A stretch of DNA of 38,413 bases from UHGV virus genome UHGV-0319989; one strand, given 5' to 3'. The position numbers were made by a program, and so were the translations under genes. Source of the stretch: a virus. Below are positions 1,706-5,478 of the stretch, in pieces. Numbering within the stretch: the stretch's first letter is position 1; every line of letters starts with the position of its first letter. The notes beneath the pieces were generated by a model. That model searched no databases. It was not told where the DNA came from and was given only the letters and a program-made list of their open reading frames with translations.

Positions 1706-1786
1706 GGAAATCATTCAATACTCGCACTATCGGAAGTTCACCATCCAGCCGCAGCAAGTTCTTGCATACGACGTGTCAGCGGGTTC
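1706..1786. repeat. Copy A of an ~80-bp hairpin-containing repeat family at cargo-module boundaries
   Basis: About 87% identical by hand alignment to 4376-4458 (core CATCATTCAATAYTCGCACTATYGGAAGTTCACC...GTTCTTGCATAC(R)ACGTG); shorter related copy at 5438-5478. Confidence 0.6.
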
Positions 1787-1931
1787 AACTCCCGCCAGCT
1801 CCACCAATCATGATTGGACGGTGTAAGGACAACACCAACAAAAACAGGATGTTAGCAGTCTCAGCAGGACACCGACCAGACGGTGAGGAGACAAAAAAGG
1901 ATACGCAAAGGAGCCGCAGCTCCCGAGTGAT

Positions 1932-1961
1932 AAAAAAGCCCGCTTATGCGGGCTTTTTTTT
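1932..1961. terminator. Bidirectional rho-independent terminator
   Basis: AAAAAA-GCCCGC-TTAT-GCGGGC-TTTTTTTT: perfect 6-bp GC stem, 4-nt loop, A-run on one side and T-run on the other. Lies 10 bp beyond the stop of the minus-strand BRO-N gene. Confidence 0.8.
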
Positions 1962-1970
1962 CCCTCAAGC

Positions 1971-2732
1971 TCACTGACGTGTTCTTGCCTCAACTACTTT
2001 CTGGTATATAGCGATAGCTTCATCAACCAAAGCTAATGGATAGCAAGAATTTATATTCAATCCGGAGGGGCACTTAATTCTTTCTGCTCCACGTTCACTA
2101 CGCAATTTTTCACACCATTGCCAAAGCTCCTCAACCGAATAGGTATCCAAACCTAACTCCATCAATCGTTGAGGAACACTTCTGAACTGAGACAAATCTC
2201 TTAAACTTTCTAACGAGTTAACTTTTAGTTCAACTTGGTTTACTCTACTTTCTAACTCTTCACGTTTTTCTATTTCCATTACCAATGCTTGAACCGTCTG
2301 CTGCAGACTGTTAGCAAAAGCACTCAGTTCTGAACGTTCTTGCTTAGGTGGCGGAGGATATACACCAAATTCACGAATAGACGGAAGGACCTGATGAAAA
2401 AGCCAGCGTTGGAATTTTTTCCCCGCAGCAGTAGTATCCTGAGCAAGTACTCTATATAGACCTGGTTCAGTAAGAAATACCTCAGAGATAGTTTCACCAT
2501 CCACGACAAGAGAAACATTCCTAAACTCATCTGGATCTAAAGTTTTTATTACCGCTCTTATTACAGTGAGCAAGCTTTGAGAAGTCTTTCCATCCAGTTT
2601 TCTGTTCTCAGCAGAAAGCGTTCTTAGCACATCTGAAAGTGAAACAAAAATCTGCCCTTTTTCATTCATGCTACGGATATAATTTTCTCCACACTCTCCT
2701 TCGTAGCATAATTGTAACAAATTCTTTTGCAC
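1971..2732 (-). CDS. BRO-N domain protein (antirepressor-like)
   Basis: N-terminal region IFVSLSDVLRTLS...VVDGETISEVFLTEPGLYRVLAQD...KFQRWLFHQVLPSIREFGVY matches the BRO-N pattern (E.GLYRL..., VLP.IR..G.Y); C-terminal half is predicted coiled-coil. Confidence 0.55.
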   Translation of the reverse strand: MQKNLLQLCYEGECGENYIRSMNEKGQIFVSLSDVLRTLSAENRKLDGKTSQSLLTVIRAVIKTLDPDEFRNVSLVVDGETISEVFLTEPGLYRVLAQDTTAAGKKFQRWLFHQVLPSIREFGVYPPPPKQERSELSAFANSLQQTVQALVMEIEKREELESRVNQVELKVNSLESLRDLSQFRSVPQRLMELGLDTYSVEELWQWCEKLRSERGAERIKCPSGLNINSCYPLALVDEAIAIYQKVVEARTRQ

Positions 2733-3065
2733 GCCATCCCCTCCTTTTTTTATGGATTATACATCCTATAAACATGTTGTCACCGAAAGGGAAAAGCATA
2801 AACCCAATTTATGTTCCACAAGATGTTCAAAAATCAAACAACCATATAGCTGAGGAGCACAAAAGAGCAAAAGTTTACCAACCCCATATATCCATACAGC
2901 ACATACAATTGACACTACATATGGTATTTTTTAAGTTACGCCTTGCACCATTTCATGATTTTATGTAGATTGTCATCACACGCTGAGATTAAAAAATTCT
3001 ACAATTTTTGTTGATCTTGAGTTTGGTTTTTAGTATAAGTGAGCATGGATTGTAGGAGGCGCAAC

Positions 3066-3416
3066 ATGGTAACTAGCTTTGGTAAGACTCTCAGAAAAAT
3101 GAGAATAGACCGGGGTATGGTGCTCAAAAATATGGCTGATCTGTTAGGCGTTAGTTCGGCTTACTTATCCGCCATTGAATTAGGCAAAAGAGCTATACCG
3201 GACTCATTAGTAAATACGATTGCAACAACTTTTGAGCTTAGCGGACAAGACATCATCAATCTCAAGAAACAGGCAGAGATTTCTCAACCGTCCATTAAGG
3301 TTGATATGTCGGATGCAAATGAGCAGAACAAAGAACTAATGCTTGTTTTTGCTCGTAAATTTAAGGACCTGAGTCCAGAGCAACTCGATAAGCTTAATAA
3401 AATGTTAAAGGACTGA
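3066..3416 (+). CDS. XRE-family helix-turn-helix transcriptional regulator
   Basis: HTH MVLKNMADLLGVSSAYLSAIELGKRAIP. AGGAGG Shine-Dalgarno 6 nt upstream of the ATG at 3066 (the ORF-track start at 3039 lacks an RBS). Confidence 0.8.
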   Translation: MVTSFGKTLRKMRIDRGMVLKNMADLLGVSSAYLSAIELGKRAIPDSLVNTIATTFELSGQDIINLKKQAEISQPSIKVDMSDANEQNKELMLVFARKFKDLSPEQLDKLNKMLKD

Positions 3417-3419
3417 ATA

Positions 3420-3953
3420 ATGATTGCGAAACGAGAACTTGGCCATCGCGTTTCACCTCTCAGCACCAGCATGATTAAATCATACGCTCATCGTCTGAGA
3501 GACGTTCTTCAGATATCAAATCACACATATCTGAGACTGGATGTATTACTAGAAGGTCTTATGGCCTCAGAAAGCATTGAGCTAGAAATTGTTGAAGATC
3601 ATGAACTGCCCAAACGCTATGCAGTGACTTATCCAGATAAGAACAAAATTGTTTTACAGCGATCTGTTTACGATGCAGTGTGCAATGGTGAGAACCATGC
3701 GAGATTCACTGTTGCGCATGAACTTGGTCATTTAGTCATGCATCGCAATCAAAGTATCTATGCACGTAATAAGACTAGTGGAGGGCATAAAATCTATGAA
3801 GACAGCGAATGGCAAGCAGATGTTTTTGCAAGCCACTTCTTAATTGACTCAAGACTAGTTTTGCCCACAATGACTGTTGAAGATATAAGCAAAACATTTG
3901 GTGTCAGTCAACAAGCGGCTGAAACTTGGATGAGAAAAAATGCAAAAAGATAA
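3420..3953 (+). CDS. ImmA/IrrE-family (COG2856-like) zinc metallopeptidase
   Basis: HEXXH motif in FTVAHELGHLVMH with downstream E...SEWQADVFASHFL. ATG 3 nt after the XRE stop, so a coupled XRE-peptidase pair. Confidence 0.75.
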   Translation: MIAKRELGHRVSPLSTSMIKSYAHRLRDVLQISNHTYLRLDVLLEGLMASESIELEIVEDHELPKRYAVTYPDKNKIVLQRSVYDAVCNGENHARFTVAHELGHLVMHRNQSIYARNKTSGGHKIYEDSEWQADVFASHFLIDSRLVLPTMTVEDISKTFGVSQQAAETWMRKNAKR

Positions 3954-4078
3954 CGAAAAAGCCAGCGAACCGCTGTCGCTGGCTTCTCCTATCGTAAGCA
4001 AATACGAAAAACTTGGCGGTTGTGAGTATACGCTTACCTTAGGTTTTGTCAACAGCGAAACTTTACAGGTAACACGAT

Positions 4079-4222
4079 ATGACCATTGAAAAAGCTGTAT
4101 CTGAGGAATACATCACAATTTACCGTCCTTTTATTACGGTCAAAGGTAAACGGATCTTTGCTCGTCAAAAAGGCTTGGCAGCCTTTCCTATCAAAATTCC
4201 TGCCTCTAAGTATCGAGGATAA
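4079..4222 (+). CDS. Small ORF (47 aa), hypothetical, possibly a gene remnant
   Basis: ATG preceded by AGGTAA at good spacing; product MTIEKAVSEEYITIYRPFITVKGKRIFARQKGLAAFPIKIPASKYRG. Below the ORF-track length threshold; no family recognised. Confidence 0.25.
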   Translation: MTIEKAVSEEYITIYRPFITVKGKRIFARQKGLAAFPIKIPASKYRG

Positions 4223-4375
4223 TCTTTGCTAATCTTAGGCCCTTTTCTAGGGCCTTTTATTACACTTCTGTTACGCGCACCACAGATAGAGTTTCAGCTA
4301 AAACTTTTGTTCATACCTAGGAGTCTGCTGACGAGTGGTTTGTTCACTAATAAACACGTAAAAACGGTAACGGCT

Positions 4376-4458
4376 GGACATCATTCAATATTCGCACTAT
4401 TGGAAGTTCACCAGCCAGCCACAGCACGTTCTTGCATACAACGTGCCTGCGGTTTTTG
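4376..4458. repeat. Copy B of the ~80-bp hairpin-containing repeat (terminator-like 3' end)
   Basis: About 87% identical to 1706-1786; ends with imperfect stem GCACGTT...AACGTGC followed by TTTTT. Lies about 135 bp upstream of the GIY-YIG gene. Confidence 0.6.
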
Positions 4459-4592
4459 AGACCGGTCCGATCATCAAACGAAACATAAAATTAGCTCACA
4501 CTATGAGGAAAAGTATCTTTTTTTACTATGTAAATTCAAAGGATTAGCCTCATTTACCCGATAGTTTTCTCAACACTACTGGTTGTGAGCCC

Positions 4593-5417
4593 TTGCAATG
4601 TTCATTAATATACGTCTCACAAATAATTCATAGATATTGCAAAATGGATATTACTGAGTTTCCTTCTGGAGTAATTGAACACCTTGGCTGGTATGTATAC
4701 CGATTGATTGATCCGAGGGACGGAAGCACCTTCTATGTAGGGAAAGGCAAAGGTAACCGCGTATTTGCCCATATGCGCGGTGAAGTGGCAGCGACTGATG
4801 ATGACGAGTTACTGAGCAACAAGCTAAAGCAAATTAGAGAAATAAGGTTAGCAGGACTTGAGGTTATCCATGTCATCCATCGACACGGAATGACTGATGA
4901 AAAGACGGCGTACGAAGTTGAAGCAGCACTTATTGATGCCTACCCTGGGTTAACGAATATCATGAATGGTGCTGGCAGCAATGAATTCGGCGCCGCGCAT
5001 GTCAAAGAGTTGATAGCAACATATCAACCCGAAACCATAACATTTCATCATAAAGCATTAATGATTTCCGTTAACAGAAGTGCAAAGGATTCAGAGCTTT
5101 ATGATGCGGTTCGATTTAGCTGGCGCATTAATGTCTCTCGCGCCAGCCAAGCAGAAGTCATTCTTGCTACTGTAAGGGGGATCGTTCGAGGGGTTTTCAT
5201 TGCTGATAAATGGCTCAAATCAACACGTGAAAATTTCCCTACGATGAAATACTGGGACGAGGATCCGGACTTTGAGGCAACACAAAGTTCTCGCTATGGT
5301 TTTGAAGGTCGAGAAGCCCCACCTGAAATAGCAAATCTTTATCTTGGAAAAAAAATACCAGATGAATTAAGAAAAAAAGGAGCTATGTCCCCGGTCCGTT
5401 ACTCACCTAATTTTTGA
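4593..5417 (+). CDS. GIY-YIG nuclease-domain protein with uncharacterised C-terminal domain
   Basis: [33 protein letters not shown] is a clear GIY-(x10)-YVG...R...H/E motif. Alternative start at 4644 (MDITEF...). No SD at either start. Confidence 0.7.
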
Positions 5418-5437
5418 GTCTTTAAGTGATAAGCATA

Positions 5438-5478
5438 AACCGCAGCACGATCTTCTTGCATACGACGTGCTACGGTTT
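5438..5478. repeat. Copy C (short) of the hairpin repeat; likely bidirectional terminator between convergent genes
   Basis: AAA-CCGCAGCACG-(16-nt loop containing TTCTTGCATACGA)-CGTGCTACGG-TTT, a 9/10-bp stem between the GIY-YIG stop (5417) and the invertase stop (5478); shares the core with copies A and B. Confidence 0.55.

Follow-up and report, generated by a model that had tools for sequence, protein, structure and literature searches.

How a short non-coding repeat came to stand between successive cargo genes of a prophage island, and what keeps it there, is the question raised by the viral genome UHGV-0319989, of which a stretch of 38,413 nucleotides (the window) was analysed. The repeat, here called element E, is an unannotated two-hairpin non-coding element of about 95 bases that belongs to lambdoid and e14-like prophages. 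Our preferred reading, to which we give a probability of roughly 0.55, is that E is a conserved non-coding module, which would act as a 3'-end or terminator-type RNA and whose copies mark the seams of stacked modules.

A repeat search of the window paired positions 1679-1785 with 4349-4455 (pair D1, copies A and B; 107 nt, 84% identity) and returned a 28-nt family with three members, at 1748, 4418 and 5442. The 18-mer GTTCTTGCATACGACGTG lies on the + strand throughout, at 1758 without mismatch and at 4428 and 5452 with one mismatch each, against 0.03 matches expected in the shuffled window; none of 100 shuffles gave three. Covariance model R1, trained on relatives and run over the 38.4-kb window, found exactly three sites, all on the + strand, the first of them preceded by an extension:

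1595-1685, + strand: 5' extension of ~90 nt, the 'long form' of E, on copy A only (alignment)
1686-1796, + strand: copy A (R1, 108.2 bits, E-value 8.6e-24), with hairpin 1 at ~1702-1746, unpaired linker A at 1747 and hairpin 2 at ~1748-1783
4356-4466, + strand: copy B (R1, 110.8 bits, E-value 2.1e-24), with hairpin 1 at 4372-4416, linker A at 4417, hairpin 2 at 4418-4453 and a T run at 4453-4457
5438-5477, + strand: copy C, hairpin 2 alone (R1 match 5411-5489, 24.7 bits, E-value 0.0013)

The preliminary description of this DNA had noticed three direct copies of a repeat between cargo modules, and the searches bear this out. Its unit of ~80 bp shared by A and B is real and proves longer, about 107-111 nt, with the further ~90 nt 5' of A, and the hairpin that it recognised is one half of a two-hairpin unit. 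The 3' core that it placed in a stem-loop does occur in all three copies, but the motif TTCTTGCATACGACGTG is chiefly the hairpin-2 loop and its 3' arm rather than stem, with one substitution in copy B. Lambda, SC476 and numerous IMG/VR prophages align with the 5' extension of copy A, for which alignments with copy B and HK97 show no counterpart; a query of extension plus copy A (1595-1778) was at least 80% covered in 1606 genomes. The minimum free energy structure of copy B consists of two adjacent hairpins and is significant against shuffles (z = -2.66), as is the fold of copy C (z = -3.37 on the + strand, -4.17 on the - strand). Copy A folds no better than its shuffles (z = +0.34) and has uncompensated mismatches in both stems, and because its stems are degraded it may no longer be functional. 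Copy C lies where PD-T4-3 and pin converge, in the 60 nt between their stop codons (5415-5417 and 5478-5480, respectively), with an A-rich run on its left and a T-rich run on its right, the predicted layout of a bidirectional terminator; its hairpin plus TTTCATTTATCTCC is also present in HK97. A consensus terminator scan of the window called none of the three copies.

Far from being peculiar to this island, E is ubiquitous in lambdoid prophages, lambda included. Matches were found in 5385 of 5426 complete E. coli genomes (~99%), at 15,848 places with a median of 3 per genome, and in 196 phage records, among them lambda, HK97, Stx phages and Salmonella phages. Lambda has two copies, both in the b region, and E is also carried by the K-12 prophage Qin and by Citrobacter phage Chris1. 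The family is absent from Rfam 15, and the sequence was not found in any paper in the literature searched.

Over its ~95 nt, E consists of an A/U-rich lead (GTAAAATCGGTAAC), hairpin 1, a single unpaired A and hairpin 2, and both stems have been kept by compensatory changes. In the model-guided alignment 91.4% of cells are paired, against at most 52% when the partners are slid, and changes on both sides occur in 16 of the 24 pairs of the stems. Doubly changed cells number 113; the shuffles averaged 31.5 +/- 8.9, and none of the 500 came that high, although these controls leave part of the shared-ancestry effect in place. A plain MAFFT alignment gave a result in the same direction. Covariation thus supports the conserved structure that had been suspected, and the contrary possibility, a repeat absent elsewhere and devoid of conserved structure, is clearly contradicted by it and by the E. 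coli counts. Two unpaired stretches are conserved in sequence, one inside hairpin 1 (ATCATTCAATACTCGCACTATCG) and one in the hairpin-2 loop (TCTTGCATACG). Each collection scan fixed the unpaired sequence of one hairpin in its search pattern, and in both scans that of the other hairpin, left free, was conserved anyway; unpaired columns are less variable than stems (mean entropy 0.43 vs 0.53 bits). G·U pairs outnumber A·C (114 vs 55), which favours a + strand RNA, though the preference is only 2:1. The HK97 element forms two abutting hairpins (fold z = -4.85), most copies have a bulged base in a stem, and the hairpin-2 loop, at 13 nt, is longer than the loops of canonical intrinsic terminators. 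Among unique members, the 8 nt that follow hairpin 2 contain at least four T in only about half of the cases and two or fewer in 43%; T-rich runs follow hairpin 2 in copies B and C and in copies ahead of + strand cargo. Conservation begins on the left at a -10-like hexamer, TAnAAT (TAAAAT, TACAAT, TAGAAT or TATAAT), in four left contexts, and the B lineage has TAAAAA in its place. In the Citrobacter/Salmonella group TTGAAC and TACAAT, 16 nt apart, stand directly 5' of hairpin 1; in the alignment of the E. coli group a recognisable -35 element was not found.

In phages the home of E lies downstream of int and of dinI or other morons, always on the int strand. There it occupies the 3' end of the transcription unit on the integrase side and faces pin or tfa, where the late tail-fibre operon ends. 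At least 15 IMG/VR prophages share the order dusA, int, DinI, E, pin; Chris1 has int, then msgA(dinI), E and a converging invertase, and HK97 has int, attP, sib and E facing tfa. In lambda, E1 lies between ea31 and ea47 and E2 occupies the convergent gap between ea47 and tfa. Stop codons of pin or tfa are 8-48 nt away from the E hairpin motif. At locus L192, E and a complete ssrA 3' end are followed by a P4-type integrase, an arrangement that is a genuine attR.

Against this background the island can be read as an ordered series: the 613-1557 ORF, copy A, a block of BRO-N, XRE, ImmA, two small ORFs and a dinI remnant, copy B, PD-T4-3, copy C and pin. The features that bear on its assembly are as follows:

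125-172, - strand: 3' half of a tRNA-Thr(CGU) gene, thrW-like (sequence: CGT anticodon loop, T-arm GTAGGTTCGACTCCTAT, acceptor strand and CCA)
613-1557, + strand: 314-aa ORF, family unassigned, in variable cargo slot 1 (comparison with relatives)
1779-1806, + strand: exact last 28 nt of ssrA (tmRNA T-arm, acceptor strand, CCA), att core (match to ssrA)
1807-1966, + strand: chromosomal DNA downstream of ssrA, including the intrinsic terminator at 1925-1966 (alignment by eye)
4262-4350, + strand: decayed dinI 3' fragment directly 5' of copy B (alignment with intact dinI-E junctions of IMG/VR prophages)
4644-5417, + strand: PD-T4-3 anti-phage defence gene encoding a LEM-3-like GIY-YIG nuclease, the B-C cargo (PADLOC PD-T4-3, E-value 2.4e-140, full length; Pfam LEM-3_GIY-YIG)
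5478-6068, - strand: Pin-type DNA invertase, end of the late/tail-fibre block facing E (Pfam Resolvase and HTH_7)

The tRNA-Thr half gene, in which ARAGORN found no complete tRNA (125-172) and which we take to be thrW from the K-12 sequence and locus, is context outside the repeat and is the displaced att copy at the left prophage end; the matching junction in SC476 adjoins paoD and a LysR pseudogene. For the 613-1557 ORF the earlier label 'GIY-YIG/HTH' found no support, since Pfam and PADLOC searches gave no match. In relatives the place of this ORF, with conserved flanks on either side, is taken by retron Ec48, an S1 peptidase or an AAA ATPase, and in strain 50EVAW the ORF and copy A occur together in different surroundings.

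The ssrA core at 1779-1806 shares ~5 nt with the 3' arm of hairpin 2 of copy A and is identical to the attR core of strain 2A, whose ssrA-integrated prophage has core and flank duplicated at attL and attR; by eye, 1807-1966 aligns with both ends alike. Of the Rfam tmRNA model only positions 347-363 found a match here, and ARAGORN found no tmRNA gene; the inverted-repeat arms of the terminator (1925-1943 and 1948-1966) coincide with partial terminator-like Rfam matches. Copy A, ssrA core, flank and terminator together would represent a former ssrA-type attP. The dinI remnant before copy B ends in ...ESADEWFVH* at 4321-4350 and has suffered a 15-nt deletion and an in-frame stop, and its intact 82-aa counterpart in relatives belongs to the DinI family (PF06183, E-value 1.1e-19). 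That the repeat might derive from the 3' part of a duplicated gene, a possibility raised at the outset, holds to the extent that B brings this fragment along; the repeat itself is non-coding. The T run of copy B is followed by a decayed ssrA-like core: the right flank of B lines up position by position with the ssrA core of copy A, about half of the bases being identical. The layout of E, ~1 kb of DNA and a hairpin-2-only copy, seen here around PD-T4-3, is repeated at L268, L277, L310 and L321. Copy C adjoins the stop codon of pin, a gene that in relatives is annotated pinE.

In many genomes homology with the window begins at 1779 or ends at 5478. A lambda-like siphovirus has the same island as far as C and a different tail gene beyond, phi458 joins copy A directly to a pin fragment, and at least 10 distinct right flanks start immediately after CTGCGG. 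Since each copy still carries a piece of a former neighbour, the three repeats look like seams of stacked attP-proximal modules, with E copies left between cargo such as PD-T4-3. Copy A would be E with the core and flank that once belonged to an ssrA-type attP and are now enclosed in a phage at a thrW-type site, copy B an older junction of dinI', E and a decayed ssrA-like core, and copy C a hairpin adjoining pin. Exactly such direct repeats around cargo would remain if modules had recombined, whether by homology across E or through an integrase acting on the ssrA-like core. E elements are 80-90% identical across otherwise unrelated phages, so they could serve as portable homology for cargo exchange. 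The relics on A (ssrA att core and flank), B (dinI) and C (pin stop), and the breaks in relatives' homology exactly at the copies, fit well with an early suggestion of recombination scars from serial cassette acquisition.

As regards function, the sequence evidence makes a transcribed 3'-end or terminator-type RNA module the most likely role and a regulatory small RNA its main rival. E would be transcribed as the 3' end of + strand units, its hairpins stopping or insulating transcription and protecting the 3' end, and the hairpin-2-only form (copy C) would be a bidirectional stop for convergent genes; transcription, termination and stabilisation by E are all predicted roles. Copies B and C, whose hairpin has a T-rich run behind it, could plausibly be terminator or 3'UTR modules, as first proposed, but a plain terminator is not the whole story, since only about half of the family has the T-tract. 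Terminators normally do not keep their loop sequence while the stem drifts; that the E loop is kept in this way points to a sequence-specific partner, be it RNA, protein or RNA polymerase.

Such a partner would also be expected if E were the gene of a trans-acting regulatory small RNA of ~85-95 nt, made from its own promoter or processed from an upstream mRNA 3' UTR at the A/U-rich lead, with the hairpin-1 interior and hairpin-2 loop contacting host or phage RNA or protein; the window would then hold one or two live genes (B, perhaps A) and the fragment C. The conservation of unpaired sequence above that of the stems, also where scans left it free, the -10-like hexamer at the left edge, the TTGAAC-TACAAT pair, the many copies ending in a hairpin and T run, and the excess of G·U on the + strand all suit this view. 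However, the E. coli group has no recognisable -35, the B lineage has lost the hexamer, nearly half of the copies have no T-tail, and a search for complementarity to E within the window returned only E itself and no target. Neither Rfam nor the literature holds E, although small RNAs have been sought intensively in K-12, whose Qin prophage carries copies, and we consider this explanation doubtful. A nascent-RNA element acting on RNA polymerase, like HK022 put or in the opposite sense (for instance stripping or resisting N/Q antitermination where leftward and late units converge), would account for the put-like architecture, with two stem-loops, one unpaired base between them, a size of ~70-90 nt and conserved non-helical residues (PMC9378689), and for the location of E exactly where two antiterminated operons converge. 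The -10-like hexamer at its 5' edge likewise has a parallel in putL, for which sigma-dependent pausing was suggested by the authors (PMC9378689). Yet R1 gave no match at the HK022 put loci, only a weak E-like one downstream of int (E-value 0.31), E is distant from early promoters, and the T-runs ahead of + strand cargo fit a stop rather than a read-through signal, which makes such an activity very improbable.

Two further explanations are based on DNA. If E had no RNA function and served as DNA to which integrase, IHF and Xis bind, namely the phage-side P arm of an attP specific for ssrA, the copies elsewhere, including B, C and those of lambda, would be neutral relics spread by recombination. 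At L192, and where the arrangement resembles an attP, as at copy A, E does adjoin a genuine ssrA att core, many of its right flanks are ssrA-like cores in differing stages of decay, and GCACTAT in the hairpin-1 interior resembles the lambda Int arm-site consensus, (C/A)AGTCACTAT. Arm sites, however, do not need two stems kept by compensatory changes; the integrases next to E are unrelated (lambda/HK97-type, dusA-type, thrW-type, icd/e14-type), its distance from attP reaches 3.4 kb in lambda or spans int and dinI, and the P arm of the ssrA-integrated prophage in strain 2A is of another kind and contains no E. A P-arm origin is improbable. Hairpin 2 could alternatively be a site-specific recombination site for cargo cassettes, an attC-like hairpin or a core derived from the ssrA T-arm, in an integron-like platform beside the phage integrase. 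Break-points do concentrate within a few nt of hairpin 2 on either side, ~1-kb cassettes recur between a full E and a hairpin-2-only copy, and most copies have the bulged stem base. Eight right-flank classes begin with (T)TTCA or TTTCG, like the ssrA T-loop TTCAACT, and the known tRNA- and tmRNA-targeting integrases exchange strands in the T-loop. Terminator tails equally predict T-rich starts, though, and homologous recombination over 95-180 nt at 85-90% identity is enough for the joints; with no dedicated recombinase, neighbouring integrases of several unrelated types, and an A-B interval of several genes in both orientations instead of one gene per site, a recombination site seems highly unlikely.

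Among known systems, the closest to the preferred 3'-end module are the terminators at moron and operon ends of lambdoid phages, the 'moron' concept being credited in a passage of PMC4104026 to Juhala et al. 2000. Like them, E directly follows accessory-gene stop codons and has a GC-rich hairpin with a T run in B, C and about half of the family; its copy C, moreover, separates two convergent genes and is bordered by an A-run and, on the opposite side, a T-run. Unlike them, E combines two hairpins in one unit and has a 13-nt loop, its loop and interior sequence is conserved across genera while the stems covary, and 43% of unique copies have no T-tract. The lambda/HK97 retroregulatory hairpin sib (tI) is likewise a structured RNA element, lies on the int strand beyond int and attP and acts on leftward transcripts at their 3' end, a role that may also apply to E. 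HK97, however, has its own annotated sib (21042-21091), directly after which E begins, and the lambda E lies 3.4 kb past sib, so E is an element separate from sib. HK022 putL and putR resemble E in their two stem-loops, one-nt unpaired joint, size, conserved unpaired residues and 5' -10-like sequence (PMC9378689). They differ in showing no homology of sequence or structure with E, with no R1 match at the put loci, and in lying directly after pL and pR rather than in the b region. Williams reportedly treated, in 2003 in J Bacteriol ('Traffic at the tmRNA gene'), the att-site relics and tandem islands found at that gene. The exact 28-nt ssrA 3' end and downstream flank of copy A, its decayed version at B, and E with core beside a P4-type integrase at L192 recall such islands, but the ssrA fragments here lie inside a prophage at a thrW-type junction, and what is conserved is the structured sequence left of the core, not the core. 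With integron attC sites E shares hairpin formation, a place at the cassette 3' end, direct orientation and a bulged stem base; it differs in having no IntI-type integrase, in a far more conserved sequence, and in cassettes that may carry several genes in both orientations. Finally, 'linker' or boundary sequences are said to figure in the modular theory of lambdoid phage evolution of Susskind and Botstein (1978) and Clark et al. (2001). Like these, E is short, conserved and found at module boundaries where mosaic homology starts and stops; unlike them, it has a structure supported by covariation, and for this reason it probably owes its maintenance to its own function, beyond serving as a recombination anchor.

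The window carries three copies (A, B and C) of E, a non-coding element of about 95 nt formed by two hairpins; in a defence-gene island built of stacked modules, the seams are where these copies stand. When the 38.4-kb window was searched with a covariance model derived from relatives, exactly three matches were returned:

1686-1796, + strand: copy A (108 bits)
4356-4466, + strand: copy B (111 bits)
5411-5489, + strand: copy C (24.7 bits, E-value 0.0013), consisting of hairpin 2 only (5438-5477)

Both the covariance model and a repeat search place the repeat where the preliminary description had put it; its location therefore stands, while its length does not, the unit being longer than described. 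In the repeat search, 1679-1785 and 4349-4455 are 84% identical over 107 nt, and a 28-nt family has three copies, at 1748, 4418 and 5442. The 18-mer GTTCTTGCATACGACGTG has three + strand matches (0, 1 and 1 mismatches), for a shuffle expectation of 0.03. Copy A has an extra 5' extension of ~90 nt (about 1595-1685) that is absent from B, and both B and C fold better than shuffled sequences.

The element begins with an A/U-rich lead (GTAAAATCGGTAAC), followed by hairpin 1, one unpaired A and hairpin 2. Hairpin 1 consists of a GGCTGG ... CCAGCC stem around a conserved ATCATTCAATACTCGCACTATCGAAAG, and hairpin 2 has the form (G)CCGCAGCACG - TTCTTGCATACGA - CGTG(n)CTGCGG(C). Copies were gathered in two independent scans, anchored in the hairpin-2 loop in one case and in the hairpin-1 interior in the other, and in each scan the unanchored hairpin conserves its unpaired sequence and changes its stems; overall, unpaired sequence is better conserved than the stems. 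The stem changes are compensated: in hairpin 1, GGCTGG/CCAGCC is replaced by GACTGG/CCAGTC or GACTGAC/GTCAGTC, and in hairpin 2, CCGCAGCACG/CGTGCTGCGG by CCGTGGCACG/CGTGCTACGG, GCCGTCGCTCG/CGGGCGGCGGC or GCCGCAATCATGC/GGTGTGGTTGCGGC. In the MAFFT alignment 89.3% of cells pair, compared with 24-50% for slid partners, and double changes occur in 14 pairs, values reached by 0 of 500 shuffles; in the model-guided alignment (85 distinct rows) 91.4% are paired, with double changes in 16 of 24 pairs; doubly changed cells number 113 there, the shuffles giving 31.5 +/- 8.9. These are counts that come from sequences related to one another and, for the second alignment, from one fitted to the structure. 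RNAalifold recovered only 7 pairs from the plain MAFFT alignment because the hairpin-2 indel misaligns the two groups, and a stated structure and the model-guided alignment served in its place. G·U pairs are commoner than A·C (114 vs 55), a bias that points to the + strand.

The copies of E share no conserved reading frame, and within hairpin 2 the diverged group differs in length by 1 nt, enough to put any frame out of register. Codon changes between A and lambda, counted by eye, comprise 3 synonymous and 7 non-synonymous. Two open frames were judged spurious. The + strand frame MQKIRK...SFNTRTIGSSP..., open in A and lambda, has no start codon in B or in dinI-type copies; its differences are mostly non-synonymous, and the diverged group has it out of frame. 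In A this frame continues as an ORF of 108 codons (1651-1977, +) through the ssrA core, its flank and the terminator; it is open also in SC476, and a stop closes it in the native ssrA flank of strain 2A. The short - strand frame ending ...GW*, whose stop position is kept in A, B and Qin, has only 9-12 codons. The sole coding remnant at the repeats is a dinI 3' end upstream of B.

The finding is larger than a reader of the sequence alone could see. Ubiquitous in lambdoid prophages and present in lambda too, E is a structured non-coding module that carries no annotation. A 184-nt query (1595-1778) matched 5385 of 5426 complete E. coli genomes at 15,848 places (median 3 per genome), most of them with no annotated feature underneath, and the 100-nt core matched 196 phage records. 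In lambda (J02459), the leftward strand has E at 24167-24265, with ea31 on one side and ea47 on the other. The covariance model of E also found a second lambda copy, hairpin 2 only, at ~22559-22674 (5592-5707 of the comparison locus L008), which takes up the space where ea47 and tfa (orf-194) converge and whose stem departs from the consensus by compensated changes (CAGAACG / CGTTTCTG); the b region of lambda has E twice. Since lambda tolerates b-region deletions such as b2, E should not be needed for plaque formation. In HK97 the element begins exactly at the end of the annotated sib site, facing tfa, in Stx phages it is found near the prophage end, after dinI, and in K-12 it sits at the Qin boundary, with ydfJ' and ynfT as neighbours; the genome search listed one more K-12 place. 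Phages of Citrobacter and Salmonella have a diverged group. In a species-level genome scan with a degenerate 17-mer, most matches were chance ones from unrelated phyla, those that looked real being only in Escherichia/Shigella, E. albertii and possibly Pantoea.

E corresponds to no family of Rfam 15, which gave no gathering-level matches in the window; copies A and B gave nothing even at an E-value <= 10, nor did E in HK97, Qin and three diverged loci at <= 0.01. An exact-sequence search of a paper library returned no paper with the E sequence, and searches on Esr41, O157 prophage sRNAs and the b region gave no mention of it. Known prophage small RNAs were rejected as an identity for E; of these, AsxR and AgvB are located in the moron site downstream of PR' (PMC4104026). 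No annotated feature lay under E in the records inspected, and its presence in lambda and K-12 possibly makes it an overlooked element in well-studied genomes. In the same neighbourhood, and unrelated to E, K-12 Qin has an Rfam IS009 candidate small RNA inside or antisense to tfaQ (L006 4879-5077, - strand, 221 bits); in the diverged locus L265 the family matches less strongly (39 bits).

The surroundings of E were compared by clustering the ORFs around 133 occurrences and searching Pfam with representatives. The recurrent basal order is dusA(host) / integrase -> DinI -> E <- Pin or E <- Tfa, with the convergent stop codon 8-48 nt from the hairpin motif, and Citrobacter phage Chris1 reads int ... 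msgA(dinI) -> E <- invertase. Cargo is found on either side of E, including EcoRII-type restriction-modification, a methyltransferase, a GGDEF protein, ea47 and PD-T4-3, and in Nissle 1917 sitABCD is the E-side cargo. The B-cargo-C layout of the window, that is, a full E, ~1 kb of cargo and a hairpin-2-only copy, is repeated at several loci. At the opposite prophage end, strain 2A has three genes between the integrase and the ssrA attR (L003 8240-10128), encoding two hypothetical proteins and, between these, a STAS-like domain protein, in what looks like another cargo slot. The hotspot marked by E contains PD-T4-3, retron Ec48 and EcoRII-type restriction-modification, and also sitABCD and GGDEF proteins; the covariance model provides a sequence and structure marker for it, with which further cargo genes could be collected.

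The window represents the tail-fibre end of an E. coli prophage, a temperate myovirus that is e14/SfV-like, in which the following features, found by Pfam and PADLOC searches except for the tRNA fragment, read from the sequence, and the ORF at 613-1557, surround the copies of E:

125-172, - strand: 3' half of tRNA-Thr(CGU), anticodon loop to CCA
613-1557, + strand: ORF of 314 aa
1971-2732, - strand: BRO-N, divergent from XRE/ImmA
3066-3416, + strand: XRE
3420-3953, + strand: ImmA
4644-5417, + strand: LEM-3-like GIY-YIG, the anti-phage gene PD-T4-3 (PADLOC E-value 2.4e-140, full length)
5478-6068, - strand: pin invertase

The tRNA fragment, which we take to be thrW, reads as a displaced att copy that marks the prophage/chromosome junction; ARAGORN reported no whole tRNA at 125-172 and an Rfam tRNA check gave no match, presumably because only half a tRNA is present. 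In SC476, this same junction adjoins paoD and a LysR pseudogene. The 314-aa ORF had been labelled GIY-YIG/HTH, a label that found no confirmation, as neither Pfam nor PADLOC gave a match; its position, from the thrW fragment to A, is occupied in relatives by retron Ec48, an S1 peptidase or an AAA ATPase, which makes this ORF a candidate uncharacterised defence gene. The XRE/ImmA pair (3066-3953) matches the PADLOC CapH/CapP regulator models (E-values of 1e-10 and 5e-15), with no obvious effector beside it apart from two tiny ORFs (3940-4089 and 4079-4222). Beside pin, a 20-nt inverted repeat (6094-6113 / 7706-7725, AAACGTTGGTTTGGGAGAAG / CTTCTCCCAAACCAAGGTTT, 95% complementary) brackets ~1.6 kb of tail-fibre/assembly ORFs and has the look of a pair of crossover sites for an invertible host-range segment of the Pin/Gin type.

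It had been suggested that the repeats are cassette boundaries or recombination scars, and this is supported by their being mosaic joints with relics of neighbours. In many genomes the match to the window starts only at 1779, or ends at 5478. At the bio locus, a siphovirus resembling lambda has retron Ec48-A-BRO-XRE-ImmA-B-PD-T4-3 as far as C and then its own tfa; phage phi458 has another cargo gene and then A directly fused to a pin fragment; and strain 50EVAW has the 314-aa ORF of the window and an identical A, followed by other cargo and adjoining a different integrase. At least 10 classes of right flank start immediately after CTGCGG, and the left break-points of short copies lie within ~10 nt of hairpin 2.

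Each window copy keeps a relic of a former neighbour. Copy A runs into an exact ssrA core with its flank, 1779-1806 being identical to the last 28 nt of ssrA and 1807-1966 a copy of the DNA downstream of ssrA, terminator included; a closely related prophage lies in ssrA in strain 2A, where the same ~190 bp are duplicated at attL and attR. A tmRNA-like gene at A, considered from a resemblance by eye of ~1680 to the ssrA tag region, was rejected, since the complete tRNA-like domain, the resume codon/tag ORF and the pseudoknots of such a gene are absent: the ARAGORN/Rfam match covers the last 17-28 nt only, ARAGORN reports no tmRNA in the window, and the Rfam tmRNA model matches at copy A only with its positions 347-363, at 1779-1795. 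In another prophage locus (L192), E and the complete ssrA 3' end are followed by a P4-type integrase (Arm-DNA-bind_3 + Phage_integrase), and this junction is a true attR belonging to a tandem ssrA array. The layout of L192 implies that E stands directly beside the core in some ssrA-integrating lambdoid phages, and that A is such an attP region, now internal; with the ssrA core and flank inside and a thrW-type junction outside, the prophage carries an internal ssrA-type attP-like segment. Copy B represents an older junction of this type: a decayed dinI 3' end (4262-4350, ...ESADEWFVH*) comes before it, and when the sequence after it is aligned to the ssrA core, about half of the positions are identical. 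Copy C, hairpin 2 alone, occupies the 60-nt gap between the PD-T4-3 and pin stop codons, and its right flank TTTCATTTATCTCC is also present in HK97. On the simplest reading, the attP-proximal modules of different phages may have been stacked by successive recombination, relying either on the homology that E provides or on an integrase acting at the ssrA-like core, and the stacked modules would later have been trimmed by deletions.

As to function, we infer that E is probably a transcribed 3'-end or terminator-type module on the int strand, with arguments both ways. Its position right after stop codons and its orientation speak for such a module, as do the T-runs after hairpin 2 (in B, C and copies before + strand cargo), the placing of C between an A-run and a T-run, and the preference of wobble pairs for the + strand. 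Hairpin 2 is a stable GC-rich stem-loop of 10-13 pairs (median dG -19 kcal/mol among 113 unique copies); however, its loop of ~13 nt exceeds the about 3-8 nt of intrinsic terminators, and a consensus terminator scan did not report A, B or C. The stem is followed by TTTTT in B and TTTCATTTAT in C, and by the ssrA T-arm instead in A; family-wide, the next 8 nt include >= 4 T in 49% of copies and <= 2 T in 43%. The 13-nt loop and the restriction of T-tracts to about half of the unique copies count against a plain terminator, and the unpaired sequence conserved above the stems suggests a specific partner. This last feature leads to the main rival, a regulatory small RNA, for which a -10-like TAnAAT is found at the left conservation edge in four unrelated left contexts, in all groups, and TTGAAC-16 nt-TACAAT before hairpin 1 in the Citrobacter/Salmonella group only; the E. 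coli group, however, has no recognisable -35 element, and within the window complementarity to the conserved loops is confined to E itself. Should E prove to be a regulatory RNA, few RNAs carried by enterobacterial prophages would be as widespread.

That E serves purely as DNA, in the manner of an att arm, is unlikely given the covariation, the several unrelated integrases and the variable distance from attP. As the P arm of the strain 2A ssrA prophage E was rejected, the attR arm there being different, A/T-rich and without E; this rejection is limited to that phage, since in L192 E stands beside the core. It is highly improbable that hairpin 2 with the following ssrA-T-arm-like sequence is, beyond a landmark, a recombination site where integrases insert or exchange cargo; were it so, lambdoid prophages would carry an integron-like platform, [E]-cargo-[hairpin 2]-cargo..., beside the tail-fibre genes, and the phage-borne ssrA 3' end would be a decoy attB capturing ssrA-targeting elements and their defence genes. 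A MITE or transposon was also rejected: the orientation of E is constant relative to int and the tail-fibre genes, the element is confined to this prophage region, and an informal look revealed no terminal inverted repeats or target duplications. E bears on the questions of what ends the antiterminated leftward and late lambdoid transcripts where they converge, and how unrelated phages exchange morons so precisely.

E differs from several known systems in its position and neighbours. The sib/tI retroregulator is an RNase III hairpin of the int transcript and lies just beyond attP, whereas lambda E is 3.4 kb from attP, and in HK97 the annotated sib is a separate sequence immediately upstream of E. 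Integrons combine an IntI-type integrase and its attI site with an array of promoterless genes, one per site and all in one direction, unlike the A-B interval, which has BRO-N (-) together with XRE/ImmA and two small ORFs (+); moreover, the neighbour in the window is a serine invertase, those of the relatives are ordinary phage tyrosine integrases of several types, and no attI-like arrangement was seen. By analogy of architecture, E resembles the put antiterminator RNA of HK022, which has two stem-loops with one unpaired base between them in about 70 nt (PMC9378689): the minimum free energy folds of HK97 E and copy B likewise give two stem-loops, with a consensus single A between the helices. 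However, the covariance model of E, run on HK022 17-33 kb, finds nothing at the put loci and only one weak match (E-value 0.31), downstream of int and outside the early region; and put, which makes RNA polymerase resistant to terminators in cis, lies just downstream of pL/pR, whereas in lambda and HK97 E lies in the b region.
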